Shown piece after piece: positions 11,030 to 64,000 of a stretch of DNA of 64,000 nucleotides; positions within the stretch are counted from its first letter, which is position 1, and every line of letters starts with the position of its first letter. The stretch is from Macrostomum lignano (taxonomy: Eukaryota), in assembly GCA_002269645.1 (NCBI GenBank), contig NIVC01003167.1:51645-115644 (forward strand), in the 5' to 3' direction. The position numbers were made by a program, and so were the translations under genes. Below the pieces are notes generated by a model. The model was not told the DNA's origin, ran no database searches, and was given only the letters and a program-made list of their open reading frames with translations.

Positions 11030-11051
11030 TGAGAGTTTGCTTGCGACGCCA

Positions 11052-11226
11052 TGTAATGACTCAGACTAGCTATTTTTTTTGGCGAGAGAAACGATGCACT
11101 TAAATGAGCCGACTGCTCAATTCAATATATTTATAGGCCCGAGAGCATTGCGTAATAAGAGTATTGCTACGAGTTAGTTCATCGCCAAAGCCAAGTACAT
11201 TATTACCGCGCAGAGCGTACACTACA
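11052..11226 (-). repeat. 5' LTR of Gypsy element 1
   Basis: Direct repeat of 6548-6722; followed on the minus strand by the TGG-initiated PBS. Confidence 0.95.
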
Positions 11227-11279
11227 TACAGTACTTGAGTGCTTGTCTGTGCTCAGCGGCTTGGGCAGAACTGCCTCAC

Positions 11280-11983
11280 CTTAAGCGTGACAATGGCCAG
11301 CCTCGACTGGCTCGCCGCCGCCCGCCTCCCGATGGATCTGGCGGCCTGGCGACTCCTCAGCAGCAGCATGGCGCACAGGGCCCCCAGCACGGCCAGGTTG
11401 ATGAGCAGACTCAGGCCCAGGGGCACCACCGACAGCCCGACCATCAGCCACTGCTTGGCGGACGCGGCGTCGCATCGTCGATTGTTCAACAGTCCGAAAC
11501 GAAAGTGCAGCGCGGCCAGGGCGGCCGTCAGCAGTGCGGGCATCAGCCAGACGAAGGCGGACAGCCTGGCGTAGCCCCAGCGAGTCTCCCTGCTGGGCCG
11601 CACCGTCCGGGAGCCGATGGAGATCAGCAAGTCAATGCCAAACACGGCCGCCCAGGCGAAGGTGCCAGTCAGGGCTAGGAAGCTGGCTAGAAGGGAGGTC
11701 AGGCACACGGGCTGGGGGAGGGCCACTGACCTGCCAGCCAGGTGCAGCAGCTCCACAACCAGCAGGCAGGAAGCGTGCCAGCACAGGATGAAGCCAGCTC
11801 GGTTGCGCAGCTGAGCAACGCTGCGGTAGACGGTCAGAAAGGCGACGAGGCTGACCAAGGAGCAGGCCAAAACCAGGTACAGGATGGCGCTCTGGACTGG
11901 TCGGTGCAGGTAGCTGCGGCCGCTCCCGTTCACCTGCGAGATGGGCGGCAGTGTCTGGGGATTGAGGAGCGTCATTTTGAAGT
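11280..11983 (-). CDS. Methuselah-like / family-B GPCR exon (TM1-TM5)
   Basis: Five hydrophobic helices, LRN after TM1, WLMP-type TM4, extracellular Cys; AAG|GTGAGG donor at 11280/11279; candidate acceptor ccacag just upstream of 11983. Confidence 0.75.
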
Positions 11984-12129
11984 CTGTGGTGTCTTGTGAG
12001 TTTCTTGTGGTGCCTGGGGTGTCTTTTGAGAGCTTTGGCTTTTGTGGAATGTATAAAGGTGGTTATTGGTGTCTGGGGTGTCTTTTGAGAGCTTTGGCTT
12101 TTGTGGAATGTATAAAGGTGGTTATTGGT

Positions 12130-14404: not shown

Positions 14405-15074
14405 GGTAAAATTGCCAGAATGGGCAACAGCCAGTGCCATAATTAGATGCAGCAGTCTGCAGCCAGAGGTCACATATCCGCTACAGACTCCGTGCAGTTG
14501 TAAGCTGCAAACCGTGTCCAGTTGAAGAGGCCGCATCAATTACAGGCCGATTCTCTGGCGGAGGCTGTCCTTTACCCGACTTACTTGTAAAAGCCCCCCT
14601 GCCCTCCCCCACCAAACTAGCCGGTGCAGCTGATTCCTGCAAAATTCCATCCAAATTAGGAAAAGTGTGGAAGTTTCCATTAGAAAAACTGAAAACTCTG
14701 TGCTATAGCTTAACACAGCATATTTATGGTAATATGGGAAATTTAATGTGTAGCGGGTGCTACAACTATGAAAAAGCAGATAATTGCAGTGGAACAAAAG
14801 TGTGAAGCTAGCGGTAGGAAATGCCGCTCTGGCTTCTTAGCTTCGCGCTGTCGAACTGTATTTGATTATAAACAACTGCCATAGACAATAGAAGTATACT
14901 TAGTGTTGTAGTGTTGTAGTGTTATATTAAAACACATAGTGCTATAACTACCTCCCTCCCAAAAGGAAGATAACTATATGTGCATCGGTTCGGTACAGTA
15001 ACATCATGAAAACAGCATCATGCACAAACAAGAACATGTTCTTAGTGTCCGTAGGGGCACAAACCACGCAAAGT

Positions 15075-18000: not shown

Positions 18001-18112
18001 TGGGTGCCAGCAGGTGGCGAGGTGCAAGGTCCAAAAGCAGCAGGGAGCGCTCAGCACCGGTGTCCACAACAAAACGAACTGTTTCTCCGAACAATTTACA
18101 GGGTAACAACAA
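15075..18112 (-). pseudogene. pol: pol of Gypsy element 2 (protease-RT-RNase H-integrase)
   Basis: VVDTGA, YIDD, RNase H, HHCC and DDE motifs. One in-frame TAG in RT (PCGD*RALN, about 17453) and a 1-nt deletion at about 15625 (PRANGLMER). Confidence 0.9.
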
Positions 18113-18156
18113 GGAAGCGGCCTCGTTGAGGTCATGGCTCGGCCCTAGCGCATGAC

Positions 18157-19007
18157 CTACGCGTTTGTTGGACTGGTAGCGCGCAACTGGGCCGGCGTAG
18201 CCTGACGGCTATTGAGCACGCGTTGTGGTTTGGGTCCGGGCCACTGGCACCATGGTCGGCAGGTGCGCGCGTCTGCGCCGTAGTAAATGTGGCCGTTGCA
18301 GACCTTTTGCCTTGGCTGTCGGGTGCGTCGCTGGGGTCGTGCCTCACGGGCGCTGTTTGGCGAAGGAGCCGACGGTGCAGCGGTAGCTCGCGCGATTGTG
18401 TGGAATGGTGTCGTGGGGCCGGCGACCGCCAACATGCTGTCAGCGATCCTCGCGAAGTTGTCGAGTGCTTCAGATTCGTGGCCGACGAGTGCCGAACGGA
18501 TGTTGCCGGGAAGGGCGGACAGCAGGCGGGACTTGACGATCGAGTCATCGACCTGCAGGCCAACTTCGGAGAAACGCCGTCGAATGTCCGTAACCAGCTG
18601 TGTAGGACGGCGATCACCGAGCTCGACCGCGGCGAGCGCTTCTTCGATGTGCTGGTGGCGGTTGGCCCGGAGTAGTTCCGTCACAGCTGACTTCAGTGCT
18701 TCGTAATCATCTTCTAAATCGGCAATGTCGCAGGCGACGTCTTCCGGCAGTGCGGACAGAGCGTGATGAAACTTGGTCGTTGGACAGGTGATGCGGGCCA
18801 AGACGAACTGGGATTCCAGTTGACGGAACCAGACATCAGGCGCTTTGCGGTAGAAGGGTGGTGGGCGCGGACCGTGCCACGGTTAACCGGCTCTTGGACC
18901 ATCGAGGCTGTGCCCCTCTCTGCAGTAGACGTAGCGCCGGTGGTGTCGGTAGCGGTCGAAAAGTCGCTAGTGACCACCGTTTGTCGCTTGTTGCGTTTGC
19001 TGGGCAT
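18157..19007 (-). pseudogene. gag: gag of Gypsy element 2
   Basis: ATG at 19007; PPPFYRKAPDVWFRQLESQF...CHCC motif; one frameshift at about 18870. Confidence 0.85.
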
Positions 19008-26058: not shown

Positions 26059-26494
<436 letters not shown>

Positions 26495-26974
26495 GAGTAT
26501 TTATTTCCAGGAATCGTTGGTGATGGATGCGCCCGCCAGTCTCCTCAGTCCACTGTGCACTCTCATGCAGCTGCTTCGCAACCGACTTAAGTAACCATGC
26601 CATTGACTATGCATATGACAGTCTCCTATCTGTTCAATAATTAATTGCTAGGAGCCGAAACAATAAGCTGCCAGCATGTACTTATTATAAACAGCTCTGC
26701 AGCAGCCACTTCCACTAAGTATCAATAAATCATAAATTGATATTGCAGCTTATACAAAGTAAAGAATGAAAAGTTAGGCTTATTTTCGAGCTAGCTGATT
26801 AGTTTGAGCTTGTGGTGATTGTAAACTTGGGCATTTCCTGGTCATGTACCCAGTCGTAAGTGGGTTAATCTTATCAGTTTATTAGGTCAATGCCAAGGGA
26901 TTATAACTATAGCTGCCATACCTATCTGGCTACTCAAAATAAGTATATTGATCTGATGTATACATAAGATTTGG

Positions 26975-40078: not shown

Positions 40079-40177
40079 ATAGATGGATTGATGGATAGAT
40101 AGATAGATGGATGGATGGACAGACACACAGACAGACAGACACACAGACAGACAGACACACAGACAGACAGACAGACT

Positions 40178-40237
<60 letters not shown>

Positions 40238-40247
40238 GCCAGCCAGC

Positions 40248-40283
<36 letters not shown>

Positions 40284-40294
40284 AATACAGACAA

Positions 40295-40352
<58 letters not shown>

Positions 40353-40455
40353 GGACAGCCAGACAGACAGCCAGACAGACAGACAGACAGATAGACAGAC
40401 AGACAAACAGACAAACAGACGGACAGCCAGACAGACAGACAGACAGACAGCCAGC

Positions 40456-40503
<48 letters not shown>

Positions 40504-40504
40504 A

Positions 40505-40559
<55 letters not shown>

Positions 40560-40590
40560 GAGACAGACAGAGACAGCCAGCCAGCCAGCC

Positions 40591-46894: not shown

Positions 46895-47063
46895 ATGGAG
46901 GCCGAATTCTCAGCCAGTGAACCCAGCCGTGGGCAGCAGCGCTATCCAGGATGGCACAGTGGACACTCGAATGCAAATGACGTGGAGTTTTTGAGAGATC
47001 AGCATGAGGAAATTTTGCTAGCTCTACGATCAGAAATTGAAAGATTACGCAGGGAAAATAATG
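46895..47063 (+). CDS. First coding exon of a CCDC74/CCDC92-like gene
   Basis: ATG at 46895; VEFLRDQHEEILLALRSEIERLRREN resembles the CCDC74/92 N-terminal coiled coil (FLQQQHxExLxxLHxEIxxLKxEN, from memory); strong G|GTAAGT donor at 47063/47064. Confidence 0.6.
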
Positions 47064-47432
47064 GTAAGTTAGTAGTTAAAGGGTTACTTTGTGTGCTAAT
47101 CCTTCATTAAAAGTAACTTTATTGTTAGTATGGATTCAAGAACTTTAGGTAAGCACTATAGCTTGTAAAACAGCTTGTTTAGATGGATTTTCTATAGCGA
47201 AAAATCTGCTAGACCAACTTTGCTGACAGGAGTTCATTTTTCTAACTAAATTTTGTGAGGCAACTCTTTTTAGAAGTCAAAGTATATCCTCCATTACCCG
47301 TAAGGTATTTTTTATAAAACCCATACCTCCTAAAAATTCTATGAAACGTAGTTTCCGTCTTTCTACTGAAGTAGTCCTTGAGTGAAACCTCGGAGTAGAA
47401 GGCATGAGGGGGCTTTTGGGACAAAATTTTTC

Positions 47433-48154
47433 ACGTCCTCCATAATCCCATTAAATCCATCTATATTATCCCTGACAGAATCAGAAAAAAAGGGGGGTCG
47501 CACTCGCTAACAAAACGTCCTCCATAATCCACCTAAATCCATCCATATTATCCCCGACAGAATCAGAAAAAAGGGGGGTCGCACTTGCTCACAAAACATC
47601 CTCCATAATCCTATTAAATCCATCCATATTATCCCTGACAGAATCAGAGCATAACAGGTGTCCTAGTTGCTCCGAAAACTTCGAACATAATCCCATTAAA
47701 TCCATCCATATTATCCCTGAATCAGAGCATAACAGGTGTCGCACTCGCTTACAAAACTTCGAACATAATCCTCCTAACCTATCCTCCTTCCTCCACGACA
47801 GAATCAGAGCATAGCAGGTGTCCTACATAATCCACTGACATCCACCCATAGCATCTTCGAAACAATCAGAAAACAATCTGTATTCTTCTCCACACATTCA
47901 ATCTGCAACGTGCTACCAGATCCCTAAGACTTTAAATCCCCTAACCCAGGGTCCTTACCCTTTGAAAAAAAATCTAAATTTTCTCTAAAAATGTTTCCAG
48001 TTGTCTCTCCAGGTTCTTATTACAAAGCGCACGAGCCTAATTACAAGAGTAAGTACCGATGCAAACTTGAATGCAGCGAGTACATGAGAAAATATTGGCC
48101 CGGCGTTGATATCAATGTCCCTAATATTAATCTAGCTCTCCAAAGACACTGGTT
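47433..48154. repeat. Left terminal inverted repeat (at least 720 bp) containing about 82-bp tandem subrepeats
   Basis: 47541-48154 is the reverse complement of 63385-64000, with a few substitutions and scattered 1-nt indels. Confidence 0.95.
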
Positions 48155-48182
48155 CAGAACACAGCTGAGAAAATTTGCTTAG
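47991..48182 (+). CDS. Left-TIR copy of the small TIR gene (63 aa; C-terminus from unique sequence)
   Basis: The first ~55 codons lie within the TIR; AAAAATG start context. Confidence 0.45.
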   Translation: MFPVVSPGSYYKAHEPNYKSKYRCKLECSEYMRKYWPGVDINVPNINLALQRHWFRTQLRKFA

Positions 48183-49022
48183 TCATGCTAGTAAGAGTTT
48201 GGCTCTGCATGAAAGGTACAATCGTTGATGGTAATTTCACTTAAAACAAAGAAAAGAAAGAAAGCAGACCTTATTTATTAATTGTTAAATAAATACCGTA
48301 CCGTAATACGGTACCGAAAATACCGTATTGTAGTTGGAGTTTATTCTATGAAGCTTTGAATTTTTATTTATCGAAATTTTGTAATAAATAGAATAACAAT
48401 GTTTTACATAAACAAAAACAAGAATGATTATTAATTGGTGGTACTTCTAAAATTGTCTACAAGTTGCTCTAAATTTATATTAGAAGGAAGGTTATCTAAC
48501 AAACCTACAGTATCCTCTCTACATATCCCACATTTTCTCGTGTTATTACTTGAAGTAAGAATTTCTAGTCATAATACTTATAAGTAGGCTCTAAACAACT
48601 TGACGCCATTCTGGACTGTCTCGGAAAAACCACACATGATTTTCTCTAACGTGTTAGAAAAAATTATGTACACACATCATTTTCTCTAACGCGTTAGAAA
48701 AAATCATGTGCGCCCAGTACGTTCAAGGCCGTCTCCCCAGCTGGCCTTGGGTACCTCGGTTTCAGAGAAATCTCTCTCCCATGCCAGTGTACGCTTTCTG
48801 TTACACTCCGCTATTCTTAACACACAACCTTGGCGACAACCTCTTCATGCCTTTCTTGCCTTGCCCCCCCCCCCCTAGTGGTATCTAGTGGTAAGTGATA
48901 TCTTACCACTTCTCTCTACACTCTATGAAAATATTAATACTTATGAAATCTTAACACAACAAACAATAACCTAAAGGACTTGTCAATAAAATGCCTGAAT
49001 AAATATTAGAGTGTTGTCACCG

Positions 49023-49884
49023 TCAGCACGTCTTCACTTTTTTGTCCTCGTCCTCATCTTTATCATCTTCCTCGTTGGCCTCTGAAAAAAAGCAACGTTT
49101 TAAGAATTATCAATTTAAATTTAATAGAATTAAAACTGTGAAGCAATTACTTACCGTCTTCGTACCAGGCTTGGATTGTCTTTTCAAATTCACCTTCCAT
49201 TGTAAGGAAGGCAACACTTTCGTGCTGCATTCTCAGCAGCTGGTCAAATCTGGTGTCGGTGGCAGCCTTCTTGTGGATTGGAGCGCTATAGTTCAACACA
49301 CGCCCCATTGAATAACCCGAGAAGATCAGCCCCGGGAACTCCAGGCACAGCCGGTAATACTTCACATAATCACTCACTTTCCGAATGGTTACGTCAAACA
49401 CACGAGCTAGCTCGCGTTCGTCCATACCAAACTTTGAGCTTAAATAGTTGACTCTTCTTCCGAACTCGAATTGTAAGATCGCCTTAAGTATTGACACATT
49501 GTCAATGCCAACTATCACTTGTTTGGTGCCCTCGATAATCGATGTTCTCGACAAATCAAACAACTTTTCTCCGACGAAATTAATCGAAGAGAATAGTGAC
49601 TGTAGACTGACTCGCACGCCGCGATCTTCGATATCCTCCAATTTTTCCTTTATTTTTTCAATTACGGTTTCCTCTTGTCTATTCTCTTCTTTCTTCTCCG
49701 ATACGCTCTTCCGTTTGTCTGGCAGACCGTTTAACTTTTGCAAGCTTGCTTGAAGCCTCATCAGCTCTTCATTGGGAAAGTCTCGGAGGCGAGCTCCCAG
49801 CAGCGATCAATCTTTTTTTAATAACGATGTGGTCATCTCCACAACGTCTGAGATGCGTCTTTGTTTCTCTTTAGACAAAGCCAT
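49023..49884 (-). CDS. Intron-containing viral orphan with a putative HTH and acidic tail
   Basis: ATG 49884 is in frame with 49761 except for one TGA. 73-nt intron 49154-49082 (G|GTAAGT...TTTTTTCAG|A) joins in frame to ANEEDDKDEDEDKKVKTC*. ERELARVFDVTIRKVSDYVKYY looks HTH-like. Confidence 0.7.
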
Positions 49885-49947
49885 GCTGGGATTTCAATAG
49901 TATATACAATCGAATGTGTGTGTAGTGTGTTTAGCGTTTTCTTTTTG

Positions 49948-50092
49948 CTTTTATACAGCCGGCTAGGGTGGAAATGAAAGTTTCCAGAACGTAGTTAGCA
50001 AACAAGAACACACGGTGTACAAGCGGAGGACCAGATCGCTAAATATGAAAACGAGCTAGCACCCAGACGTCACCCAGACGTCACCCAGACGT
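49948..50092 (-). promoter_or_regulatory. Pol II-type promoter of the HTH-like gene
   Basis: TATAAAAG at 49955-49948, 64 nt upstream of the ATG; 3 x 11-bp repeat cacccagacgt (50060-50092) creating two TGACGTCT CRE/ATF-like sites. Confidence 0.55.
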
Positions 50093-50321
50093 TAACTAGC
50101 TTCCGAGCGATCGATTCCCTCCACCCGTTTGAAGTCCCTGTACATTTCCTTGGTTGATTGGGGATGTCAAAGCGGAAAGGAAAGCACGCGTGGAACTTGT
50201 ACATTCGCAAAATCGATTAGAGGGCTGCGCTCCCTCAACAAATAGCAGTTACCCCACCCTTTTCAAAATGCACCTGTTGCGTTTGGCTAGGGCTGAGAAT
50301 AATAGTTAAGCCCTTCCCGAC

Positions 50322-50810
50322 TCAAGCGCCTCTCTCTACCCCCAGCTCTTTCAGCAGTCTTCCTAGTACCTCGTTTGGAGCGCACAAAATAAACCCAGCT
50401 CCCTCTCTCCCCGTGCAACCGCCCTCTCTCCCCAAACACCCACCCTCGCCGTCGATCCCCAACCCCAGCTTTTTCTTACCAAAAATAACCGCCTTGACTA
50501 ATTTCCGAGCGATCGACTCACGAAATCCGCTTGAAGCCCCTATATTGTCTAGTCTCTTAAGCATTTCTTTGTCCCAACGATTCTTCTCCTCAGGAAAATC
50601 TCTATATTTAACGTCATGCCACATGCAGACAGAGTCTAGCTCGTTCACAGGCTCATGCCCAGGATTTGGATTATCGTTTGTATCTAACTGTATTTCAAGT
50701 GGATTCAAAGGCCCGCAATATTTGTACCCGGGAAGTGTCCAGCCTTTGTTTGGATGAGGAAGCTTTTCTATCAGTCCATGTGAATCTAACTTACCACCAG
50801 AGCGTTGCAT
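50322..50810 (-). CDS. Parvovirus-type phospholipase A2 domain protein (adintovirus PLA2-like)
   Basis: LPGYKYCGPL calcium-loop-like motif, PVNELDSVCMWHDVKY catalytic HD..Y motif, downstream D.EM. Confidence 0.88.
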   Translation of the reverse strand: MQRSGGKLDSHGLIEKLPHPNKGWTLPGYKYCGPLNPLEIQLDTNDNPNPGHEPVNELDSVCMWHDVKYRDFPEEKNRWDKEMLKRLDNIGASSGFRESIARKLVKAVIFGKKKLGLGIDGEGGCLGREGGCTGREGAGFILCAPNEVLGRLLKELGVERGA

Positions 50811-50840
50811 TATTTTATTTTAAATTTTCTTTTTAAAAAA

Positions 50841-51878
50841 ATGACAGATCAGAAACTTAAAAAACTCTACTACAGCGACAAAGGATTCTTTGTAGGAAAA
50901 AATGCAGTCACCAAACTCGCAGAACTAAGTAAGGAACCAAAAGCTAAAGTAGAAAAGTGGCTCTCTAAGCAGGCTGTCTTTCAAGTCTATTTCCCACCTG
51001 TTATATTTACAAGACCTCACTTTAGCATCTATAAACCTAATGAGGCGCACCAAGCAGACTTATTGTTTCTCCCCAATGACTCGGGCTACAAGTATGCTCT
51101 TACAATTACAGACGTTGCTTCCAGATATAAGGAAGCTCGCCCACTCAAGACGAAGAAGTCAGAAGCAGTTGCAGCCGCCCTCCAAGATATTTATAAAAAC
51201 TCACCCCTTAGTTACCCTGAAATCTTTATGACGGACCCGGGTAAAGAATTCATGGGTGCAGTGAAATCACTTCTACATAAGCATGACACAAAAATTCGCT
51301 ATGGCAGAACAAACTTGCACAGAGACCAGGCTTTTGTGGAAAGATTCAATCTAACTCTAGCCAAGAGGCTATTCACTAAGCAGACAGCTGAGGAGCTGAA
51401 ACTAAAAAGTGGTCAGTACTATTCAAAATGGACAGAACGGCTCCCCACTGTTATAGAGCAACTGAACAATGAAGTCACACGTATGACTGGATTGAAACCA
51501 TCCCATGCAATTAAACAAGACACTGTCAAACTTAAGGCAACTCATAGAACAGACAACAACACTACAACCCCACACAACACACACAACACAAAACACACCT
51601 CGAACTACCCTAAGCTTCCAGGAGTTGAATCACCATACATACTGACAAACTCTGAGTTTCTACGCTTTTTATATCTACCTGGAGAGCTAGAGAAGGACAC
51701 CAAAAGAAGAGCTACAGATCCATACTTCAGCCTTGATGTACATAAAATAGACAGACATTTTACCTCCGACTCCGGTGACTATTACTTTTTATCTCAGGCC
51801 TTTAACCCTAAATCCCCCACGCGGTCATTCACTAGAGCTGAACTCCTAGTGATACCAGCTGACACAGAAATTAATTAA
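50841..51878 (+). CDS. int: Polinton retroviral-type (rve) integrase
   Basis: HQADLLFL...DVASRY...MTDPGKEF...AFVERFNLTL, giving a DDE triad; intact ORF. Confidence 0.95.
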   Translation: MTDQKLKKLYYSDKGFFVGKNAVTKLAELSKEPKAKVEKWLSKQAVFQVYFPPVIFTRPHFSIYKPNEAHQADLLFLPNDSGYKYALTITDVASRYKEARPLKTKKSEAVAAALQDIYKNSPLSYPEIFMTDPGKEFMGAVKSLLHKHDTKIRYGRTNLHRDQAFVERFNLTLAKRLFTKQTAEELKLKSGQYYSKWTERLPTVIEQLNNEVTRMTGLKPSHAIKQDTVKLKATHRTDNNTTTPHNTHNTKHTSNYPKLPGVESPYILTNSEFLRFLYLPGELEKDTKRRATDPYFSLDVHKIDRHFTSDSGDYYFLSQAFNPKSPTRSFTRAELLVIPADTEIN

Positions 51879-51898
51879 TTAAAATATTAAAATAAAAA

Positions 51899-52354
51899 AT
51901 GACAAAGATTGAAACCAGAACCATCAATAAACTCAATAAAATCATTGAATCAAAGAAACCAGGTCTTATATCAATTAAAGGTGCCAAAGTAAAAGTCGAT
52001 CCCGTGCAGCAAATAGTTCAGTGTAATGAGCAAAGACACAGCATCACAGATGAAAAGTCAGGAGGAATCCTACCATTAGCAGCTCTTATTCCGATCATTG
52101 CAGGCGCTGTAAGTGCCGCAGGTGGTGTAGCTGGAGGTGTAGCAACTGCTGTTAAAGCTGGGAATGATAGAGCCCACCAGCTAGAATTGCAAAAGATTGC
52201 AAGAGATAAAGGTATAACAATTAAGGCAGGAGATGGTTGCCCGGATTTTGATGATTGTGATGATTGTGAGCATGAAAATTCTGTAAGCAAGTCTGACATT
52301 GTCAAAGCCATCATGACACTGCACAATGCTGGGTTTACAATAATGCGGATGTGA
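51899..52354 (+). CDS. Adenovirus protein X (pX/mu)-like core protein
   Basis: SGG|ILPLAALIPIIAGAVSAAGG closely resembles adenovirus pX GG|ILPLLIPLIAAAIGA. Confidence 0.75.
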   Translation: MTKIETRTINKLNKIIESKKPGLISIKGAKVKVDPVQQIVQCNEQRHSITDEKSGGILPLAALIPIIAGAVSAAGGVAGGVATAVKAGNDRAHQLELQKIARDKGITIKAGDGCPDFDDCDDCEHENSVSKSDIVKAIMTLHNAGFTIMRM

Positions 52355-52478
52355 TGAGGTTTAAAACCCCACTTTATCCAGCTTCATAAACCTAGCGATA
52401 CTTATAGGATGTAGAAACAGTTCAACTTTTCTATCAGGGTGGTCACCCTCAAAAAAATTTTTTATTTTATAGAAAAAA

Positions 52479-55400
52479 ATGCCAAAAGCTAATCCAGCAA
52501 GAGATTTAGTCAACAAATATTTTTCAAAAGGCGTCTCATTTCAAGACAAAAGTAATTTACTAAGAGAAGCATGCAAACAAAAGTTCAACACCGACCCTGG
52601 TCACCTGGGAAGCTATGAAAAACAGTTAGAAATCATCAATCAATTAGAATCAAACCAGTATGCGCCTATAAAAAATTCTGCAAAGGAACACCAAGAGAGG
52701 AGTCGCAACTTAGTTAACAAATACGAAACTCTCACTGGTGAAAAAGCAAGTACCCACAAAATAAGCAGGAACAAGAGAAATTAGAGCAATTAATCCATTT
52801 AAAAGAGTCGGAGCTTGCCATTGAAGAGATTAATTTTGCACAGAGGAAGTTTACAGAACATTACATAGAGTACACAATCCCAATAAACGGCACCAACGGT
52901 ACCACCGCAAACATCTACGACTATAAAGACAGCATCCAATCAGTTGTTGATCACACACTCAAAACACGCAAGACCTTTAAACTACAGATATCATTCAAGA
53001 TTGCATTTTATATGCCTGCAAAACCTACTGAGCATCTCGAGTATTACATGACAACAAAGGCAAAGCCATTCACCCCTACAGACACACTGGATCCTTTCCT
53101 TCAAGATGTCAATAAGAAAATTGAAGCGTTTACATCCAGAGGTTCCGGATGGGTCGTGGGAGGGATTCAAAGAGCGACTGTCATGGTCATGAAATATGAC
53201 CCACTTAAAGCCTCCTCTTATATAGAGCTCCCGCATAAGCTAGCCGGTAAAAAAGCTTGCATAAATGTTAAAAATAAAGACAATTGCTGTGCTCTATGGG
53301 CAGTTCTTTCTGCACTTCTTCATGATAGTGTCCCTCACCACCCCGAAAGAACCTCAAATTATCAAAATTATTTCAACTACTATCTCATCGAATGCGAAAA
53401 GAAGGGAATCTGGTTTGACAAAGGAGGCTTGGCGATCTCTCATATCCCAAAGCTAGAAGAAGTGTTTAATAACAAAATTAGAATCACAGTCTTTGAGTGG
53501 AGTGAAAAAACTGAGAAAGTTCAACCGGTCAGATGTAGCAAAGACGTTTTAGATCCTGAGGGGAAAAGGCGGACTGAAGTGGATCTTCTAGTGATTGGTA
53601 ATTTACTAGAGGAGGCTCACTATGTTTGGATTAAAGATCTTTCAAGACTCATTCACAAGCAGTTGAATAATCATCACGAGGCTGTTGCCATCTGCCGCTT
53701 GTGCCTTAAGCATTACAGTGGACCTGAACGCTTTGAAAAGCTAACAGAGCATGAATTATCATGCGAGGATCACCCGACAAATTGCTCTCTTCCTTCAGCT
53801 GAAGAGAAGTATCTCCGGTTTAAGAACTATCACAAGATGGAGAAGCTCCCATTTGTTGTATATGCTGATTTCGAATGCTCAATCATGCCGGAAACTCAAA
53901 AACAAACTCCAACTCAAAAACAAACTCCAACTCAAAAACAAACTCAAACTCAAAAACATATCCCCAATTCAGTAGCATATGCCTTTATTACTACCAAAGG
54001 ACTTGTTGAGTATAATTATTTCTTTGGAGAGCAGTGTGTGGAGCAGTTTATTGCCAGAATGTTAGAGTTGCAAAGAGTGATTAGCACCCTTCAACCTGTT
54101 CCAATAAGTATGTCTGAGGAGGATGAAATTAATTTCCTATCAGCAACTCATTGCCACATCTGCAGGAAACATTTAACTTGCACTAATATTAAAAACCCCA
54201 CCGTTAGGGACCACTGCCACTATACTGGGAAATTTAGAGGTGCAGCGCATAACACCTGTAATCTAAAGCTAAAATCGAACATTCATGATCTAACAATATT
54301 TTGTCACAACGCAAAGAACTATGACATGCATTTAATAGTTGAAAAAATCGGCATGATTCCAGACATACACCTTGATTGCATCGCAGAGAACAAGGAGAAG
54401 TTTAAGTGTGTTGATATTAAACAGGATAATTCGGGTAAAGGTGAAGGTTCGGGTACAGGTAAAATAAGACTGAAGGATTCATATCAATTTCTAGCTGCCA
54501 GTCTAGACGAACTAAGCAAGAATCTAAAAGATGAACAATGTACATATACAAAGATGTTTGCAAGTAAAATTAACAACAGTGATGAATCATTTAAACTCCT
54601 GAGAACCAAAGGCTTCTACCCCTATGAGAATATTACTGGATATCACGTATTTGAAGATGGTTTACCACCACAGGAGAAGTTCTTTTCAAAGCTAACAGAC
54701 TCTGGAATCTCTGACAAAGACTATGAGCACGCGAAGCATGTCTATAATTACTTTAATTGTCAAAACTTCTTCCAGTATCACCTGCTTTACCTCTACACAG
54801 ATGTGTTTCTGCTGGCCGATGTGTTTGAAACCTTCAGATACACCTGGTACACAGCATACGGCCTCGATCCAGCACATTATGTGTCTCTGCCTGCCACTAG
54901 CTGGGAATCTTTGCTTAAAATGAAATGGGATCAAGATCCAGATTGGTACATTGAACTTCTTACAGACATTGACATGTACAATTTTGTCGAATCGTCAAAG
55001 CGAGGGGGAATCTCAATTTGTGTTAACAGGTATGCAAAAGCAAACAATCCCTACATTGAATCTTACAATAAGGAGCAGCCCTCAAACTACATTACTTACT
55101 TGGACGCTAATAATCTCTACGGGTGGGCGATGAGTCAAGATCTTCCAGTTAGAGATTTTCGATGGCTACCCTCATCAGAATTTAAATGGGACTTTTCATT
55201 GGCTGCCATTTATGAGGTTGATGTTTACATTCCACCAGAGCTTCACGACTATTTCTCTGACTTTCCACCCTTCCCAGAGAACATCAAGTGCCCGAAAATA
55301 ATCGAAACTCCCAATGATAATAATGGAACTTGGCACCTGTCAGGAACAGAAAAAGAACATACAGAGAAACTAACACAGAATCTAAACAACAAACACGTTA

Positions 55401-56381
55401 CAAAATCCATTACAAACTGCTTCAATATTTTATCTCACTTGGTTGCAGGGTCACCAAAGTTCACAGGGCTCTTACATTTACAGAGGAAGCGTGGATGAAA
55501 CCCTACATTGATAAGAACACCCAGTTTAGGACCAAAGCAACCAACGACTTTGACAAGAACCTCTTTAAGTTGGCCAACAACTCTGTCTATGGCAAGACTC
55601 TTGAGAATGAGCGGAAAAGAACAAACCTGAAACTTGTTACCTCATCAGAGCCTGATGTTATTCAGGCAAATATGTCAAAGCCAACATTCAAAGAACTCCA
55701 TATCTTTAATAGCTACTTAGGTGTGATCATATTTTACAAAACCAAGGTGACGCTGCGCAAGCCGATCTATACAGGTGTCACTGTTCTCGACGAATCAAAA
55801 CGTCTGATGTACCAGTTCTTCTATGGCATGAAGCAGCAGTACAAGGATAAAATGAAACTCTTGTACACTGACACAGACAGTTTTATTATGGACATTCAAA
55901 CAGAAGACATTTATCAGGACATGCTGCAGCAAAAAGATTGTTTGACTTGTCTGAGTATGACGAATCTTGCAGGACGCTGAATGGTGATCAAGTGTTTGAC
56001 GCCACTAACAAGAAAGTGATTGGGAAAATGAAGGACGAGATTGCTGGTGATATAATCACTGAATTCATTGGGTTGAGAGCAAAGTCCTATTTTATAAAAT
56101 GTGAGTCGTCAGACCCAATTAAAAAATCAAAGGGAATTCCGAAACGTGTGGTTAGGAAGGAAATTAATGAAGCTGAATACAGAGACGCCTTGAATTGCAA
56201 CAAAAAGACATCACATGAGTTCTCAAAGCTACAATCTAAAAACCATATTATTCACACAATTCAGCAAAAGAAGATTGGACTGTCAGGTGCAGATAACAAG
56301 AGATTCATTTTTGATGACAATATCAACAGTCTACCGTTCGGGCACTGGAGGTTAGGTTTAGGAGGTGGATATTGGGTTTAG
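52479..56381 (+). CDS. polB: Protein-primed family B DNA polymerase, with 3 apparent 1-nt frameshifts
   Basis: Exonuclease YADFEC and HNAKNYD, EndoVII-like CHIC...RDHCH..G..RG..H..CNL, YLDANNLYGWAM, KLANNSVYGK, YTDTDS. Frame switches at about 52750, 55330-55498 and 55938-55980. Confidence 0.95.
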
Positions 56382-56414
56382 GTTTGAGAGAAAGTTTAAT
56401 AAACCTCATAAAAA

Positions 56415-56814
56415 ATGACAACAAATAACTTTCTTGAAGATTTGGCTAACGAACTGGAAATCCCAAACTTTAGAGGAATATTTATGAGGGACACTCTGCC
56501 TGATTTTCCTCTAAGAAAGAATGCGGCATCATGAACTTTGACACACCGATAAGCCAGGATCTCATTGGGTTTGCTGGGTGATTGATCCCGATCGCAAGCA
56601 CAAGTGTTATTACTTCGATAGCTATGGGACGGCAGTACCAGAAGAGCTAAGAAATTATATGAAGGGAAAAAATAATAAAAAAATTTATCGCTCAGACTTT
56701 ATTCTCCAAGGTCTTAGCAGTGATATTTGCGGTGAGCTGTGCATGACTGTTTTGTATGCAATGACCAAAACACGAAAGACCTACAAGGAAATTATTCTTG
56801 GCTGTGTTTCATAG
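56415..56814 (+). CDS. pro: Adenain-like cysteine protease (frameshifted near 56520-56560)
   Basis: NFRGIFMRDTLP, GSHW (His), YFDSYG (Asp), Q...ICGELC (Gln/Cys). Confidence 0.9.
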
Positions 56815-56818
56815 GGGT

Positions 56819-57543
56819 TCATTGTGGTGTATTTCTCGTTGTCCTTCTTGCCGAATTTCTTGCCGACTTTCTTTCCACATAATGTTGAAGAACTTTCTCG
56901 AGTTCATTTCTCAGCTGACTCATGTCATCAGTACCGACCATGTTCAAGTTCATTCGAATTGATTGTTCATAAAGATCCTGAATGGTTTTGAACTCATCCT
57001 CTGAAATGAACTTATCCTCGATTGCCCTTGAAATGTACCCTATGATTGATGTGTGCACCCCTTTCTCTTTTACTTGCTTCTCCTGTAGCTGCTTTAGTTT
57101 TTTTCGCCTGTTTCGCGCTAATGCTCCAGTAATTGCTGAAATAAGTCCACATGCAGCACCCACTGACCAGTGGATTGCGATTGGGGCTGTGATGGCTGGC
57201 AACGTGAGACAGCTGCAGCAGATCCAGATAGAACAGACACAGATCCTAGAATCATATTGCTGTAGTCGAAAAATTTACAGTGGTTGTCATAGCGCTTAAT
57301 TTTCTTTGTGTTGTGGAAAATATTTTTTTCAAGATCATCTCGCATTTTTTGAATCTCTACCAGTCGAAACTGTTGAGAGTTACAAGTAATGACGGGGTAC
57401 AGTTTTTGTTGCTCATATTGGGGTGCATTCAGATTCGGTGCCAGGCTTTGTGTGTTCGAATTCGGTGCCATTGGGTTTGGTGCTGTCGGTATTTTAGGTT
57501 CAACGTATTGAGACTGATCGTATAGAGAATTTTGTTGGGCCAT
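56819..57543 (-). CDS. Conserved Polinton membrane/coiled-coil protein (one frameshift at about 57200)
   Basis: QQFRLVEI...FDYSN, a two-helix hydrophobic segment, then ISRAIEDKFISEDEF; this pattern is recalled from other Mavericks. Confidence 0.65.
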
Positions 57544-57635
57544 TTTTTTCTCTAGAAAAAATAAAAAAAATTATAAAACTATCCGGTTGAAAGATCTGTT
57601 TTCCTTTTGATAATTCCATCTGCACCGCCGGTTGT

Positions 57636-58444
57636 CTAGGCGGCTCTCGTGACGCCGGAGGATCGCGAGTCCAGCAGGCAGCGGCTGGGCGGCTGACGTT
57701 TGAGAGCGTGCCGGATTACTCCGGCGGGGTCCAGAGCTCCTTCTACTCGATCTGTAGACATGACCGGACGAGCAGTAGATTCTGCTTCATCAATAGCAAT
57801 ATCACGAAGATTGAGTGTTCTCTCCAGACGATTAAGCCTCCTTATTATTTTACCCCAAGAGCTATACATTCCGTTTAGATAGCTACTGTGTGATACATCG
57901 TTTCTCTCTAATGCATCAAGTCTTTCTTTAATTCTATCATGCAACGCTGTTGACTGGTTCATGAACTCTTCTAAATTATTGACTTTAACTGTGTTGGTTG
58001 CGACGTTTTCTTTAATTCTATCATGCAATGCTGTTGACTGGTTCATGAACTCTTCTAAATTATTCACTTTAGCTGTGTTTGTGAAAACTCCTCCTTCAAG
58101 AATACGCATCCGTCTATCAATGGAATTTCCCAGAAGATTAACTGTCGATCTCAAGCCGTTGATTAGCGAGACTATCGAAGTTATTTCTGACGTTAGTTCA
58201 TTAGTTGCGTTTAACAACGGCACATAAAGCTTATCACTTTCAAACTTCTGCCTAGCTACTTTAAGCCTGAGATCTTCATGTTTATCTGTATGGAGCGCTC
58301 TAATTGTTTCAGTCTGTTTTTATTCAGTTTGATCTCTGGGATCTTTTCGTCGCTGTTGATATATCGCCTGTCAAGTATGGATATTTGAGCTGATGTAAGA
58401 GCGCTGTTGCCAGAAATGGATTCACCTGCAAAGTTTATTGACAT
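57636..58444 (-). CDS. Coiled-coil, possibly fibre-like viral protein (frameshift at about 58290)
   Basis: ORFs 58256-58444 and 57636-58223 are joined by a 1-nt shift; internal 84-bp (28-aa) duplication. Confidence 0.5.
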
Positions 58445-58460
58445 CTTTTAATAGCAAATT

Positions 58461-59261
58461 TTAAATTACAGTTCTTTTTTCTTTGCTGATAATCACAAAC
58501 TGGTAAGGCTGATTCCACTTGTCATAGCAAAGATTAACGAATTCCTCTTGTGAAATCTTTCTGCTTGAGTTTTTTGTTGGATTTATGAAATAGGCAGGCG
58601 CAATGACCTCATTGTAAAATCTTTTTAACCTGTCCTGTGGAATGGTTGGAAACAGGAGAATCAGATTGCAGTTCCCACGAATTGTTTTGTTCGGGAGCTC
58701 GAACCAGTTCTGTGCAATGTAAATTACATTACAATTGTTATGTCGCCCTCTTGTAAAATAGTTTTCTATCTGCTTCTGTGGGCCTGTCATACAATCATCA
58801 AAGACGATCAAATGCTTTCTCCCCTTTTCTAGCTCATCTGGTTGGGGTAGAAGTTTGGTCTTTGGATCAGCCTGTGGATCTCCATAGGTGAACACTTTAA
58901 TGTTCTGCCATTTTTCATTGTCTTTGAGGTGCTTTGCATATTCGGCAGCTACAATTTCAGGGTTACTGGGAAGGCTCATTTGGTTATTAAAACATGCAAT
59001 AATGTCCTCTTTGTTCAGCTTGTTTTGAAGCCCTGCAATCAGCATTCTATACTCATCTTGATACAGTGTGGGAGAGTAGATGTGCAGAGTGTCATAGTCG
59101 ATAAATCCAGGTCTAAGAAGCATGTTAAAGACTCTGAATGTTTTACCTGAACCTGACGAACCAACAACAATGCATCTGAAGTGACTCGGGATTGACTCAT
59201 GATGAGAAAACTTAATCTGATTACGCGTCCAGTGAGGATTGAAGTCGTTTGAAAAGTCCAT
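58461..59261 (-). CDS. A32-like (FtsK/HerA) genome-packaging ATPase
   Basis: Walker A GSSGSGKT, Walker B LIVFDD, FTRGRHNNCNVIYIAQ motif; intact. Confidence 0.95.
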   Translation of the reverse strand: MDFSNDFNPHWTRNQIKFSHHESIPSHFRCIVVGSSGSGKTFRVFNMLLRPGFIDYDTLHIYSPTLYQDEYRMLIAGLQNKLNKEDIIACFNNQMSLPSNPEIVAAEYAKHLKDNEKWQNIKVFTYGDPQADPKTKLLPQPDELEKGRKHLIVFDDCMTGPQKQIENYFTRGRHNNCNVIYIAQNWFELPNKTIRGNCNLILLFPTIPQDRLKRFYNEVIAPAYFINPTKNSSRKISQEEFVNLCYDKWNQPYQFVIISKEKRTVI

Positions 59262-59303
59262 TTTTTCTATGATGAAAAAAAAAATAATTAAATAATAAAT
59301 AAT

Positions 59304-59482
59304 TTAGATGTGTCATTTCGGGACTTAGATGTGTCATTTTGGGACTTAGATGTGTCATTTTGGGACTTAGATGTGTCATTTTGGGACTTATTGGGACTTA
59401 GATGTGTCATTTTGGTACTTAATTGTGTCATTTTGGGACTTAGGTATGTCATTTTGGGACTTAGGTATGTCATTTTGGGACT
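59304..59482. repeat. 21-bp tandem array inside the virus
   Basis: ttagatgtgtcattttgggac x ~8 plus a partial copy, upstream of the ATPase. Confidence 0.92.
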
Positions 59483-59524
59483 AGTCTTGTACCTTTACAT
59501 TTCTTGTACCCTCGGAAAGTACCT

Positions 59525-59903
59525 TTAGTCAAATTTGAAACCACTTCCTTTTTTAATGCTTGCTCTCATCTTCTCATAGACTGCAGGGTCCACACTGTCT
59601 GGGTTTGGGGCCAGCGGGGCCAGTGGAGGCTGAATCTCTTGTTTAGGTGTTACAGTATCCTTTATCTTTTTGGCTGCTGTGGCTACACTGCCAGCCGCTT
59701 CGGCAACGTTCTTGATGTTCTCTTTGTTCTCTCCAATGACCTTAAAAATCTTGGCCCCCTGAGCGATCAAATCGGCAAGACCGTTCCCTGAGCGTTCTTT
59801 TCTTGGATAGTGGCCTGCAGGGAAAAGTCCAGATCCGCGTTTAATGAGATTAAGTTCCTCTTTGTCATAGTATTTTCCACGTCTTTCTCAAAATAATCGG
59901 CAT
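59525..59903 (-). CDS. Small viral protein with repeated GxG protease-site-like motifs (frameshift at about 59870)
   Basis: YDKEELNLIKRGSG|LF...RSGNG|LADLIAQG...KKGSG|FKFD*. Confidence 0.55.
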
Positions 59904-59924
59904 CTTTTTAAATAGAAATTTATT

Positions 59925-61128
59925 TTTTGTTAAACCGTGAAAGCAAAGTTCTCTTGCTCTTTTATCGATATATTTTCTCTCAAGCATTTTGTCCAGGATG
60001 TTGACAAATTCTTTTCTATTCTCGTCTTTCATTCCGGTCTTTGCCGCTCCTAGAAGAACAGCTAACCGCTTGTAGAATTCAGGCATGCCTTTTCCGGAAG
60101 AGCTTGGAGGTGATTCGAATGATTGGTCAGAGGAGGAACTGTCATGTGGCGCTTGTCTTTGTTGAGGTGTGAATACTCTGTCATTGATTCGCTTCATTCG
60201 TTCTGGGGAGAGCCGCTCTAATTGTCGCCAAGTATCAGGGTTTGTATCTTTGTACTGGGAAATCTCATTTGGCCCTGCTTTTTCAAGCGCTTCTAGTACT
60301 TGTTCGGGTGTGATTTGTTGCTGTGGCGGTGGAGGTTGTTGTGGTTGTGTTTGTGGTTGCTGCTGTTGTGGTTGTTGTAGTTGTTGTTTTGGTTGCTGCT
60401 GTTTGTGGTTGCTGCTGTTGTGGCTGTGGTTGTTGTGGTTGTTGTCTTATGACCTCTTCTTGATCCGGCAAACCAAACCATTGTTTAAAGTATTTGTATT
60501 TTCTAAACCTGTTCAAGTCAATCCTGTTTTCATGTAAAACTTTCAAAACACCGTTGTTCTTGAGAATGTCTATGTCCCTCTCTAAAGCGAAGGTAACCAG
60601 ATCTCTATAATTCTTTAATTGCTTCTCGGATATTTTTTCCTGATTTTTAGTCATGTAGTCGAGTAAACTTTGAGTGAAGGGGATTCGTTTAGTTTCTGCG
60701 CCTTTATTGATTGAAATAGTTTCCTTCGTCACTTCAATGTTGTAATCCGCCGGTTCCCCGGTGATATTTTTTCGCCAGGCGCTAATTCCAAATATATATT
60801 TTCCATCATCCGTTACGGGGCCAAAAAAGTTATCCGTCACTTTCATCTGCACTGGTTGTCCTGGTTGCTGAGCCTGTGGTTGTCCCGGTGAAGATGGGAT
60901 TTTACCCAATGTGTTTTGCAACTGGCTCTCTTGAATATCATCAATTGTTTCCTTCACAGTGTCGATGTTTTTCTTCGCTTCTGTGTATCCAGGTTTGTGA
61001 AATTCGGTGGCTGCTTGGACGAATTCATTGTAAGATTGTTGTTCTTTGTTGATTAGTCCGGTAACTCGTTTCTCTGCTTGCGCCAGCTTTTCTAGTTCAG
61101 AGATATGATATGAACTTTTCCGCTTCAT
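59925..61128 (-). CDS. Polinton core-like protein with Q/T-rich linker (frameshifted)
   Basis: ORF 60283-61128 continues through frameshifts into SGKG|MPEFYKRLAVLLGAAKTG...EFVNILDKML, a C-terminal pattern recalled from Polinton ORFs. Confidence 0.6.
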
Positions 61129-61158
61129 TTCTTATTTTATTTTATTTTTAGTTAAAAA

Positions 61159-62383
61159 ATGAACGACCCACTGACACCAGTTTTCTACAAAATTAACAAG
61201 CCTATTTTGAGTGATGATAGCACAATCAAAGCGACACAAGTTAGAGTTCCGAGTCACGAGAACCAGAATGAAACTAATCTTGGTCCTGGTCAAACACTGA
61301 CATTTACATACAATGGATGTTCGTCTCTGGTTAGTGTGCACAGTCTTAAGAGCGGCTTCCATATGACATTTCAATTCAAGACAAAGGGTGGTGCGGATGC
61401 GGCTCGTGCTAACGTTGACAAGCATGATGCGGATGTGGCTCTGATCAGTAACTTTTGGGCGTACATGTTCAAGGAGTTTAGTGTATCGAATGGGAGCACA
61501 GAGTTGGAGCGAATCGCCAACTTTGGAATTGTCTATGACGCTCATTGTTTGATCGAGAATCCTGATTTTATTCAATTGGGAAGTGGTGCGGGTTTTATTG
61601 CAGACGAAAAAGAAGGAGATATCAATGACAGTGGCTATAAAAATAGGAAGAAGAGATACAACTATGCATTGCAAGGTGCTGATGATGCTGCTAAGAACCC
61701 GCAGTATCGGTCTGTTGATGTATTTGTACCATTGAGATTCATGAGTGGATTCTGTAATACATTTAATCGACTGACTAGTAACTTTAGCTACACATTTAGG
61801 ATGACTAGAGATGATCGCAGTAGAGTGTTGTGGACTGGGGCGGACCACACAAGGATGGAGGTGAAGCTAACCGGAATCGAGCTGTATTTGGAAGTCATTG
61901 AGCCAAAGACTGCACTAAAAGCGGATTATCTTAAGGCAATAGAGAAGGACATTGATGTTGCATACACAGCCTACATGTGTCGAGATGAGCGAAACGAAAC
62001 TAGAACAAACATCTGCATTAAAGAGGGATCATGCAGCAATCCAAGGTATATCATTATTAATATGAGAAACCCAAATAGCATCATACGCTACATGCATGGA
62101 GACGTGCGGTCCATTCAGCATGAAATCAGTGATAATCTTTACCCTGCACTGCCACAAAATGGAGATTTTTTACAGCGAGTTGGTCGACTTGGTTGTGAAA
62201 GAGAACAATGGAATTGCTATCACTGCTCTTCAATATGGAACTCTATATCCGATGTTTGGCGCTGATGTGTCTGCCAGACAAATGCCTACTGATAACAGCC
62301 CTGTGAATATCGTGACTAACATTGAAAGGACTACCGCAACACCCGTGGACCTGTACATTATCTATGCATTGAGAGGAAGGTGA
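61159..62383 (+). CDS. Major capsid protein (double jelly-roll/hexon-like), frameshift at about 62170-62200
   Basis: NFWAYMFKEFSVSNGSTELERI, VFVPLRFMSGF, IELYLEVIEP, NPRYIII, LYP...DF and PMFGADVSARQ match Maverick MCP blocks. Confidence 0.85.
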
Positions 62384-62441
62384 AGCTTAACATGATCAAC
62401 AATTCATCCAGTAAAGTTTAAATATTTTTTTGTGAAAAAAA

Positions 62442-63304
62442 ATGGAAGCGATTGCTGAAAGACTAAATAATATTGTTTCTCACTCTAAGGAGAGCATTCC
62501 TATTACAATAACTGGGCGAATTAATGACTCAAACGGGATTTATTTGTTGAAAAATTAGAGCAGGCGATTCGCCTGGATCCAGGTGCTAATTACCATGTCT
62601 ATCTTAACGACTTCACTGGTTGGTCAAACGTTCCTAATGTGATGGCAGCAAATAATAAGTTTTATTACAAATGGAAAGGTGCAGCAGCAGACCCTGTGGT
62701 ATTTCATGTGAGCACGCAAAGTGTGGATACCTACAATAACTTTCTAGAAAACGTCTTTACTAAGAGAGGCCATTTTGAGACACCTGATGCGAGTAAGCCA
62801 GAGAAGAAACTGTTCCCTGTCAAACTAACCTATGATCTCACTGTAATGAGAGTGGTCATGCAAGTTCACAAAAAATGCGGAGGTTGAGTTTAAAGATGAC
62901 ACTTGGTATAGGGAAGGATTCGAGAAGAAAGTTTATAAGGCAGAATCCGCAGCGCGGACCGCCACTCAAGCATCGGGGACTGTTAGAATGGTCCGGGAAA
63001 GTGTAACGCGTTTGTTCTTAGCACCCAATATTGCAGACATTGTAAAGGGTTTGAATATTCTAATCAGAAGCAATCTCAGTCTTGATTGGGTATTTAAGGG
63101 AAAGCGAACGAATATTTTGTACAACATCTCCAACTCTGTTGCTGGAGGACAGATGGTGGTAGAGAAACCAAATCCAGTGAAAAGAGTTGTATTGAGTAAT
63201 AAGAGATTCACGAGATTGTGCTACAGTTTGAGACTGAAGATGGGATGGGCGTTGATTTTAATGGGGAAGAGTTTGTATTGACGTTGATCATTGAAAGAAT
63301 GTAA
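62442..63304 (+). CDS. Minor capsid protein (penton-like single jelly-roll), several frameshifts
   Basis: AIRLDPGANYHVYLNDFTGWSNVPNV...NNKFYY; C-terminal VAGGQMVVEKPNP...EDGMGVDFNGEEFVLTLIIERM*. Confidence 0.8.
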
Positions 63305-63308
63305 GAAA

Positions 63309-63547
63309 TCACAATTGTCTAATGATTTCTACAAAGTTATAGTAGCTGTCGTAATCTTTTACATAGGTTACTCCATACTTATGAAACCAGTGTCTTTGGA
63401 GAGCTAGATTAATATTAGGGACATTGATATCAACGTCGGGCCAATATTTTCTCATGTACTCGCTGCATTCTAGTTTGCATCGGTACTTACCTTGATAATT
63501 AGCTCGTGCGCTTTGTAATAAGAACCTGGAGAGACAACTGGAAACAT
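63309..63547 (-). CDS. Small Tyr-rich gene at the right end (about 79 aa), N-terminal part within the TIR
   Basis: Reconstructed with the left TIR copy as MFPVVSPGSYYKAHEPNYKSKYRC...LQRHWFHKYGVTYVKDYDSYYNFVEIIRQL*; net -1 indel versus the left copy; stop is 4 nt from the minor capsid stop. Confidence 0.6.
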
Positions 63548-64000
63548 TTTTAGAGAAAATTTAATTTTTTTTCAAAGGGTAAGGACCCTGGGTTAGCGGG
63601 ATTTAAAGTCTTAGGATCTGGTTAGCACGTTGCGGATTGAATGTGTGGAGAAGAATACAGATTGTTTTCTGATTGTTTCGAAGATGCTATGGGTGGATGT
63701 CAGTGGATTATGTAGGACACCTGCTATGCTCTGATTCTGTCGTGGAGGAAGGAGGATAGGTTAGGAGGATTATGTTCGAAGTTTTGTAAGCGAGTGCGGA
63801 CACCTGTTATGCTCTGATTCAGGGATAATATGATGGATTTAATGGGATTATGTTCGAAGTTTTCGGAGCAACTAGCGACACCTGTTATGCTCTGATTCTG
63901 TCAGGGATAATATGGATGGATTTAATAGGATTATGGAGGATGTTTTGTGAGCGAGTGCGACCCCCTTTTTTTTCTGATTCTTGTCGGGGATAATATGGAT
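63385..64000. repeat. Right terminal inverted repeat (truncated by the window end)
   Basis: Reverse complement of 47541-48154. Confidence 0.95.

Follow-up and report, generated by a model that had tools for sequence, protein, structure and literature searches.

Polintons are described as elements of 13-25 kb with terminal inverted repeats (TIRs) of 100-1500 bp and target-site duplications (TSDs) of 5-8 bp (10.1101/2023.08.22.554363), and a vOTU domain with Cys and His in PolB is reported as a Polinton trait (PMC11161782). Adintoviruses of the Alpha PolB class resemble the element treated here in their OTU-PolB, rve integrase, adenain, FtsK-type ATPase and hexon, and likewise in a putative penton, PLA2- and pX-like sequences and inverted terminal repeats (PMC8502044). 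According to a 2021 vertebrate survey, particles of animal Polintons had not been observed at that time. Here, we describe a Polinton provirus in a 64,000-nucleotide stretch of the flatworm Macrostomum lignano (assembly GCA_002269645.1, contig NIVC01003167.1, positions 51,645 to 115,644; hereafter the window, with positions counted from its first letter). It is one of about 240 assembled, near-identical copies in M. lignano, a family membership overlooked by an earlier note made from this DNA sequence alone. Judged by gene set and anatomy, it is a known type of element, matching Polintons and adintoviruses; Pfam core genes, TIRs, TSD and capsid fold all uphold the identity proposed in that note.

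The provirus measures about 16.7 kb and has lost its right end at the contig end. Its left terminus (5'-AGTAG), set by a 14-mer with which fetched copies begin or end, lies at 47394, that is 24 nt further in than the start at 47370 given earlier. Since contig C3167 stops at 64000, the right TIR is short by about 146 nt; hence, the paired arms of at least 615 bp which had been said to bracket the genes are present, while the full TIR extends over about 761 bp. With these values and a TSD of 6 bp, the provirus falls within the Polinton ranges given above. Alignment of positions 47541-48154 with 63385-64000 yields 604 matches, 5 substitutions and 12 one-base gaps. The insertion site is an intron in a CCDC92-like gene of the host. 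Contig C2627, corresponding to window positions 55355-64000 at 98.3%, carries the window's hexamer behind the right terminus and the next exon of the host gene past the element's right end, and most likely reads the same insertion. Two other copies of the host gene (C2030, C374) have an element-free intron of 282-284 nt with the hexamer present once; the provirus therefore entered one of three host-gene copies. Three copies and a recent insertion fit the three subgenomes of M. lignano, which are about 1.4-2.4% apart (PMC10733133). Recent integration, already proposed from the TIRs, is supported by the exact TSD, the empty homeologous sites and only 0.8% TIR substitutions.

Exact probes detected 485 termini (as the terminal 20-mer), 244 major capsid, 240 integrase and 213 polymerase sequences in the genome, with every control, among them the reversed 20-mer, at 0; the provirus signal is thus not due to chance. 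Scored genome matches numbered 111 for the capsid, all 97-100% identical (best of 736 candidates), and 117 for the integrase at 90-100% identity. An exact 6-bp TSD flanks 22 of the 29 fetched loci with both ends, which were taken from the first listed matches and not at random, and 3 of the other 7 are off by one base. As one insertion was assembled three times and two insertions twice, the number of independent insertions is estimated at about 80 to 240; by our own estimate, the family makes up about 0.5% of the assembly. TIR divergence is at most 1.2% in 8 of 20 copies. At the same time, TIRs are 4.5-9.7% apart in 4 of 19 TSD-bearing copies, at least one TIR being nearer to that of another copy, and TIR identity is hence a weak clock in this family. 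The element occurs in 20 sequencing runs from 7 studies of one organism, none of them listed as RNA.

The provirus contains 13 internal genes and one short open reading frame (ORF) per TIR, about 15 in total and thus close to, if slightly below, the 'about 16' previously counted. In the window, Pfam matches above cut-off were obtained for PLA2, rve integrase, Adeno_PX, DNA_pol_B_2 and Pox_A32, and for Peptidase_C5 on the natural ORF of another copy. Folding of the window's capsid ORF as a single sequence gave no usable model (pLDDT 31). Using the natural 428-aa copy from C2627 together with 104 aligned relatives, a model with pLDDT 93.1 and pTM 0.91 was obtained. At E<=0.001, this model has 338 matches in PDB, with capsids of virophage, iridovirus and PBCV-1 at the top. 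The top match is the Sputnik major capsid (E 9e-18, TM 0.65), and matches in BFVD comprise virophage, MELD virus and adomavirus proteins; the capsid match is fold-level, at 10-12% sequence identity. The jelly-roll that the earlier note had predicted, and had proposed to check by folding, is confirmed by this model as a double jelly-roll. At the sequence level, the double jelly-roll Pfam family stays under cut-off (E 7e-4 for the window, E 2e-5 for the 428-aa copy), PF21738 is matched by 97 of the 104 aligned relatives, and capsid alignments, used as profiles against PDB sequences, brought up no real match. Nine capsid relatives (P0001-P0009) with 70-77% and 44-45% identity were each located on a short contig in records of Logan, ENA and JGI. 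Position and size suggest that the gene downstream likely encodes the minor capsid protein; its Atlas look-alikes at 0.98 are unnamed Nucleocytoviricota proteins, and neither a Pfam nor a PDB sequence match was found.

PolB comprises a vOTU-like region, an EndoVII-like insert and exonuclease and polymerase motifs. Two natural frame pieces are 34% and 48% identical to PolB of the Corynactis coral adintovirus, with catalytic motifs kept; the vOTU-like region also aligns to this protein, with one Cys and one His conserved, and is assigned as vOTU by motif. The PF03175 score is modest (41.7 bits), and the nearest named PolB stems from an Alpha-panel virus; the Corynactis adintovirus stands in the Alpha panel of Fig. 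S2, as judged from the page layout (PMC8502044).

Ratios of nonsynonymous to synonymous substitution rates (dN/dS) were derived from natural full-length ORFs, with broken ORFs excluded and low-identity windows masked, and are biased downwards by these two steps. They amount to 0.09 for the major capsid and 0.21 for the minor capsid (n=15 each), 0.17 for the protease (n=7), 0.15 for the integrase (n=9), 0.22 for PLA2 (n=11) and 0.23 for pX (n=9). Four orphans range from 0.12 to 0.34 (~129-aa orphan 0.12, ~405-aa orphan 0.13), the TIR ORF gave 0.31 (n=29) and the PolB pieces 0.27. In case of the ATPase, dS is saturated and the proportion-based pN/pS is 0.06 (n=10). All genes measured are under purifying selection.

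In the window, 9 of the 13 internal genes are frame-broken, leaving only PLA2, integrase, pX and ATPase intact. These breaks were compared with 24 non-redundant copies, excluding 3 redundant and 3 gene-less loci as well as the window itself. The three breaks in PolB, the two each in protease and major capsid and the three in the minor capsid recur in few or no other copies; those in PolB, for instance, are absent in 16-17 of 17 copies, and C2627 has both capsid frames open and breaks of its own in other genes. In four of five comparisons, contigs of the same insertion show 11-19 one-base indels between them over 4-7 kb (none in the fifth), and such indels outnumber substitutions in three of the five. 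Because most other copies lack the window's breaks and same-insertion contigs disagree by one-base indels, these breaks are likely assembly errors. A faster decay of PolB than of the capsid genes was considered and found unsupported, since gene length and homopolymer density (17 vs 11 runs/kb) at about 1 indel/kb could account for the difference.

Copies also differ in cargo and architecture. Across 21 non-redundant copies, the slot between left TIR and PLA2 comes in 10 DNA types that do not align with one another and is nearly empty in 4 copies. The proteins of five cassette types, one of them located in a right-hand slot, are linked by tblastn at 22-58% identity; three more types have only a motif in common in the alignment. 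Named homologs of the cargo protein all stem from M. lignano, one at 100% identity, which agrees with the flatworm host suspected from the sequence. The protein has no Pfam family above cut-off, its Atlas matches lie under recognition level and its alignment found no real match among PDB sequences; a helix-turn-helix (HTH)-like fold is a weak guess, prompted by one Pfam match below cut-off and an automatic UniRef name. Mosaicism among copies extends to TIRs and arms. Additionally, three independent insertions are mirror-image foldbacks, each with an exact 6-bp duplication. Both right-right foldbacks (C1652, C633) carry two capsid sets, no integrase and little or no PolB, with arms 99.3-99.9% identical over 4.7-4.9 kb. 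The homeologous sites of C1652 and of the left-left foldback C975 are empty, without a full-length element. Two origins are conceivable for the foldbacks, namely a template switch on free linear DNA prior to integration, or repair once integrated. Missed-adapter artefacts are unlikely as their source, because the flanks are collinear with the empty sites and one foldback was assembled twice. Over-retention of capsid arms was rejected in view of the capsid and integrase probe counts (244 and 240) and the existence of a left-left foldback.

The overall anatomy and termini, the target duplication with its empty sites, the copy number, the capsid fold and the purifying selection described so far are probably best explained by a recently integrated copy of a high-copy M. 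lignano Polinton family that likely multiplies as free linear DNA and likely has a packaged stage. Its own protein-primed polymerase would copy the element, its integrase would insert it and generate the 6-bp duplication, and the packaged stage would likely be a particle. Virion competence of the family is a reasonable inference; the family is likely still mobile, and particle formation is a possibility. Several observations weigh against this explanation. The selection signal stems largely from sublineages having diverged (major capsid dS 0.33) and may be older than the current spread, and the dN/dS of about 0.001 in fish Mavericks indicates far stronger constraint than found here (PMC8097293). 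Unbroken PolB occurs in 0 of 19 copies, the longest stop-free frame covering 818 of ~1301 aa, for which the assembly error rate alone could account. This rate is uneven, given that one same-insertion comparison shows 36 substitutions vs 19 indels and another no differences. Two PolB frame differences are common to all three assemblies of one other insertion, so that some PolB decay is probably real. Finally, no relatives were found among viral and metagenome contigs in a weak search with two short peptide patterns. A more far-reaching version, in which M. lignano hosts live particle-forming Polintons whose free genomes recombine and swap an HTH-like cassette and whose mirror-image defectives integrate via a helper integrase, is possible and put forward tentatively.

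A germline-only self-synthesising transposon, whose capsid genes merely ride along with a low dN/dS as relic of a viral phase, would agree with the exact TSDs of defective copies (foldbacks and deletion forms of 0.6-8.7 kb), which make complementation in trans within the cell likely, and with the lack of close relatives in the two-pattern search of viral contigs. Yet, assembly errors notwithstanding, 16 of 23 copies have open capsid frames, virion genes are at least as constrained as integrase or PolB, and major capsid and integrase probes are equally frequent, which renders this scenario unlikely. Still less credit is given to a family already dead, its breaks real, its burst finished and its count partly inflated by the three host subgenomes. 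The missing unbroken PolB, the retro-element-like ORFs in three copies and the repeatedly assembled insertions would suit it, whereas the window insertion and two foldbacks are missing from homeologous sites, TIRs in 8 of 20 copies hardly differ and contigs of one insertion disagree on the position of most breaks. Most improbable is a virophage-like element dependent on a giant virus for transcription or activation. It could account for the start contexts of the 11 genes checked and for a virophage capsid as top structural match, but this match is fold-level only at 10% identity, PolB shares 38-45% identity with polymerases of Polinton type (where named, of coral and ant origin), and A-rich start contexts are common in invertebrates.

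Table 1 Features of the provirus, its insertion site and its foldback relatives (window positions unless a contig is named)
Feature	Position	Strand	Remarks
Host exon, CCDC92-like coiled-coil gene	46895..47065	+	Pfam CCDC92 33.6 bits, above cut-off; provirus in next intron
Left 6-bp TSD	47388..47393	.	same hexamer after right terminus on C2627, once at both empty sites
Left TIR	47394..48154	+	~761 bp, AGTAG start, ~82-bp tandem repeats inside
Short TIR ORF, 63 aa (78-80 aa in most copies)	47991..48182	+	clusters in 15 + 22 elements at two ends; no Pfam family
Cargo gene, helical protein, predicted HTH-like C-terminal part	49147..49884	-	245 aa in sister copies; one break near 5' end
Parvovirus-type phospholipase A2-like protein	50322..50810	-	PF08398 E 9e-14; unbroken
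Retrovirus-like rve integrase	50841..51878	+	PF00665 E 2e-10, 41.1 bits (cut-off 32.6); open 345-aa frame
Adenovirus pX-like core protein, separate gene	51899..52354	+	PF05829 E 5e-7; unbroken
Protein-primed PolB	52479..56381	+	PF03175, PF02945; four frame pieces
Adenain-like maturation protease	56415..56814	+	PF00770 21.9 bits, above cut-off, natural 133-aa copy; two breaks
~240-aa protein with hydrophobic segments	56822..57543	-	one break; no Pfam family above cut-off
~270-aa coiled-coil orphan with 84-bp repeat	57636..58447	-	varies among copies; one break
A32/FtsK-like packaging ATPase	58461..59261	-	PF04665 above cut-off; Walker A + B motifs visible; unbroken
21-bp tandem repeat array	59304..59482	.	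in both right-right foldbacks, short arm stops within or next to array
~129-aa orphan	59525..59913	-	broken
~405-aa orphan with Q/T-rich tract	59913..61128	-	broken
Major capsid protein	61159..62440	+	genome matches, relatives, structure model; two breaks
Likely minor capsid protein, 287 aa in most copies	62442..63305	+	position + size; three breaks
Right TIR	63385..64000	-	truncated by contig end; complete end visible on C2627
Right-right foldback	C1652 (also assembled as C276)		11.3 kb
Right-right foldback	C633		13.1 kb
Left-left foldback	C975		11.5 kb; no capsid genes; arms 99.2% over 5.4 kb

Several further forms of the element were encountered. Short two-terminus elements of 640-870 bp without internal genes lie at C124:22982-23697, C289:58541-59180 and C32:1150965-1151833, and a 3.6-kb two-terminus element at C544:473028-476600 contains capsid genes only; most of these four have an exact TSD. 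Copies nested in other copies occur at C1098:29333 and 34390, C2829:83152 and C957:97839; on C1098, two termini lie directly against the 21-bp repeat array of the element itself, the place at which arms of right-right foldbacks stop as well. The copies on C110, C139 and C70 enclose foreign, retro-element-like ORFs (recombinase-, protease- and integrase-region-like; putative labels assigned by eye). A distant relative at C85:924491-935723 (L090, L091), with 73-82% DNA identity, has its integrase opposite to the capsid arm; together with 736 protein vs 285 DNA capsid candidates, it suggests further Polinton families in the M. lignano genome.

In all 11 element genes checked (e.g. those starting at 52479, 57543, 59261 and 61159), the ATG is preceded by an A/T-rich leader with an A-run at its end. 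About five gene starts have a pyrimidine tract and AG directly upstream, resembling a spliced-leader acceptor; trans-splicing occurs in this host. Divergent gene pairs share spacers of about 30 nt. The ~240-aa protein with hydrophobic segments presumably resembles the adintovirus 'GasderminX'. Outside the provirus, the host intron contains a ~110-bp insertion (47257-47370) that both empty homeologs lack; it has dozens of matches at 75-90% in other places and is likely a small repeat. Window positions 1-46000 are dense in minisatellites, among them inverted arrays of 4-nt repeats (26059-26498, 40125-40564), and contain GC-rich blocks at 7000-12000 and 15000-19000.

Because this young family has 80-240 insertions, its virion genes are constrained and its host is a flatworm that is cultured in the lab and available as inbred lines, the question of Polinton particles becomes testable by observation alone. 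If the family is indeed a live particle-forming population, a culturable animal would afford a direct view of Polinton virions and defective-interfering genomes. Foldbacks and cassette slot constitute a record of Polinton replication and recombination. For M. lignano genomics, the estimated ~0.5% of the assembly stems from one family that inserts into genes. The value of the system rests on family size, youth, foldbacks, cassette slot and tractable host.

Poxvirus terminal transpositions and the snap-back genomes of adenoviruses and parvoviruses are mirror-image terminal duplications of linear DNA viruses. In these genomes, as in the foldbacks, one arm is replaced by the other as a long inverted repeat and central genes are lost; in contrast, the M. 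lignano foldbacks are integrated with target duplications. GasderminX and cupiennin genes, along with a hexon in the Terrapene cluster, characterize the virion module of Beta-class adintoviruses. From Alpha adintoviruses, the family differs in that PLA2 and pX are separate genes on opposite strands and not a PLA2X fusion, that a GasderminX-like gene is presumably present and that PolB identity is only 34-48%. No flatworm adintovirus is named in the main text and part of the supplement of the adintovirus study, whose slide files may list some (PMC8502044). Orthopolintovirales insertions are reported from a rhabditophoran flatworm (10.1101/2025.04.19.649669). No description of a Macrostomum Polinton or Maverick was found in the literature searched, which left most subscription papers, repeat databases and preprint supplements outside. 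Likewise, titles and abstract beginnings contained no description of Polinton foldbacks or palindromic derivatives, and passages of a further preprint added nothing on them (10.1101/2025.02.07.637071); mosaic exchange is described broadly (10.64898/2026.10.13.758929).

Nematode Mavericks carry a cargo region at the corresponding position, filled with host-derived, intron-bearing protease or kinase genes, and possess a fusogen (10.1101/2022.07.12.499685), whereas the M. lignano family has compact cassettes, several of which appear to encode distant members (17-58% identity) of one helical family with homologs found only in M. lignano. Vertebrate Mavericks and coral polintoviruses share with it the 6-bp TSD, intronless core genes, purifying selection on virion genes and occasional amplification to hundreds, with 287 copies in axolotl and 7.8% of one coral genome (PMC8097293, PMC11131425). 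The high vertebrate counts, however, consist of defective copies with at most 38 intact ones per genome (PMC8097293), while the ~240 assembled copies in M. lignano belong to one young family.

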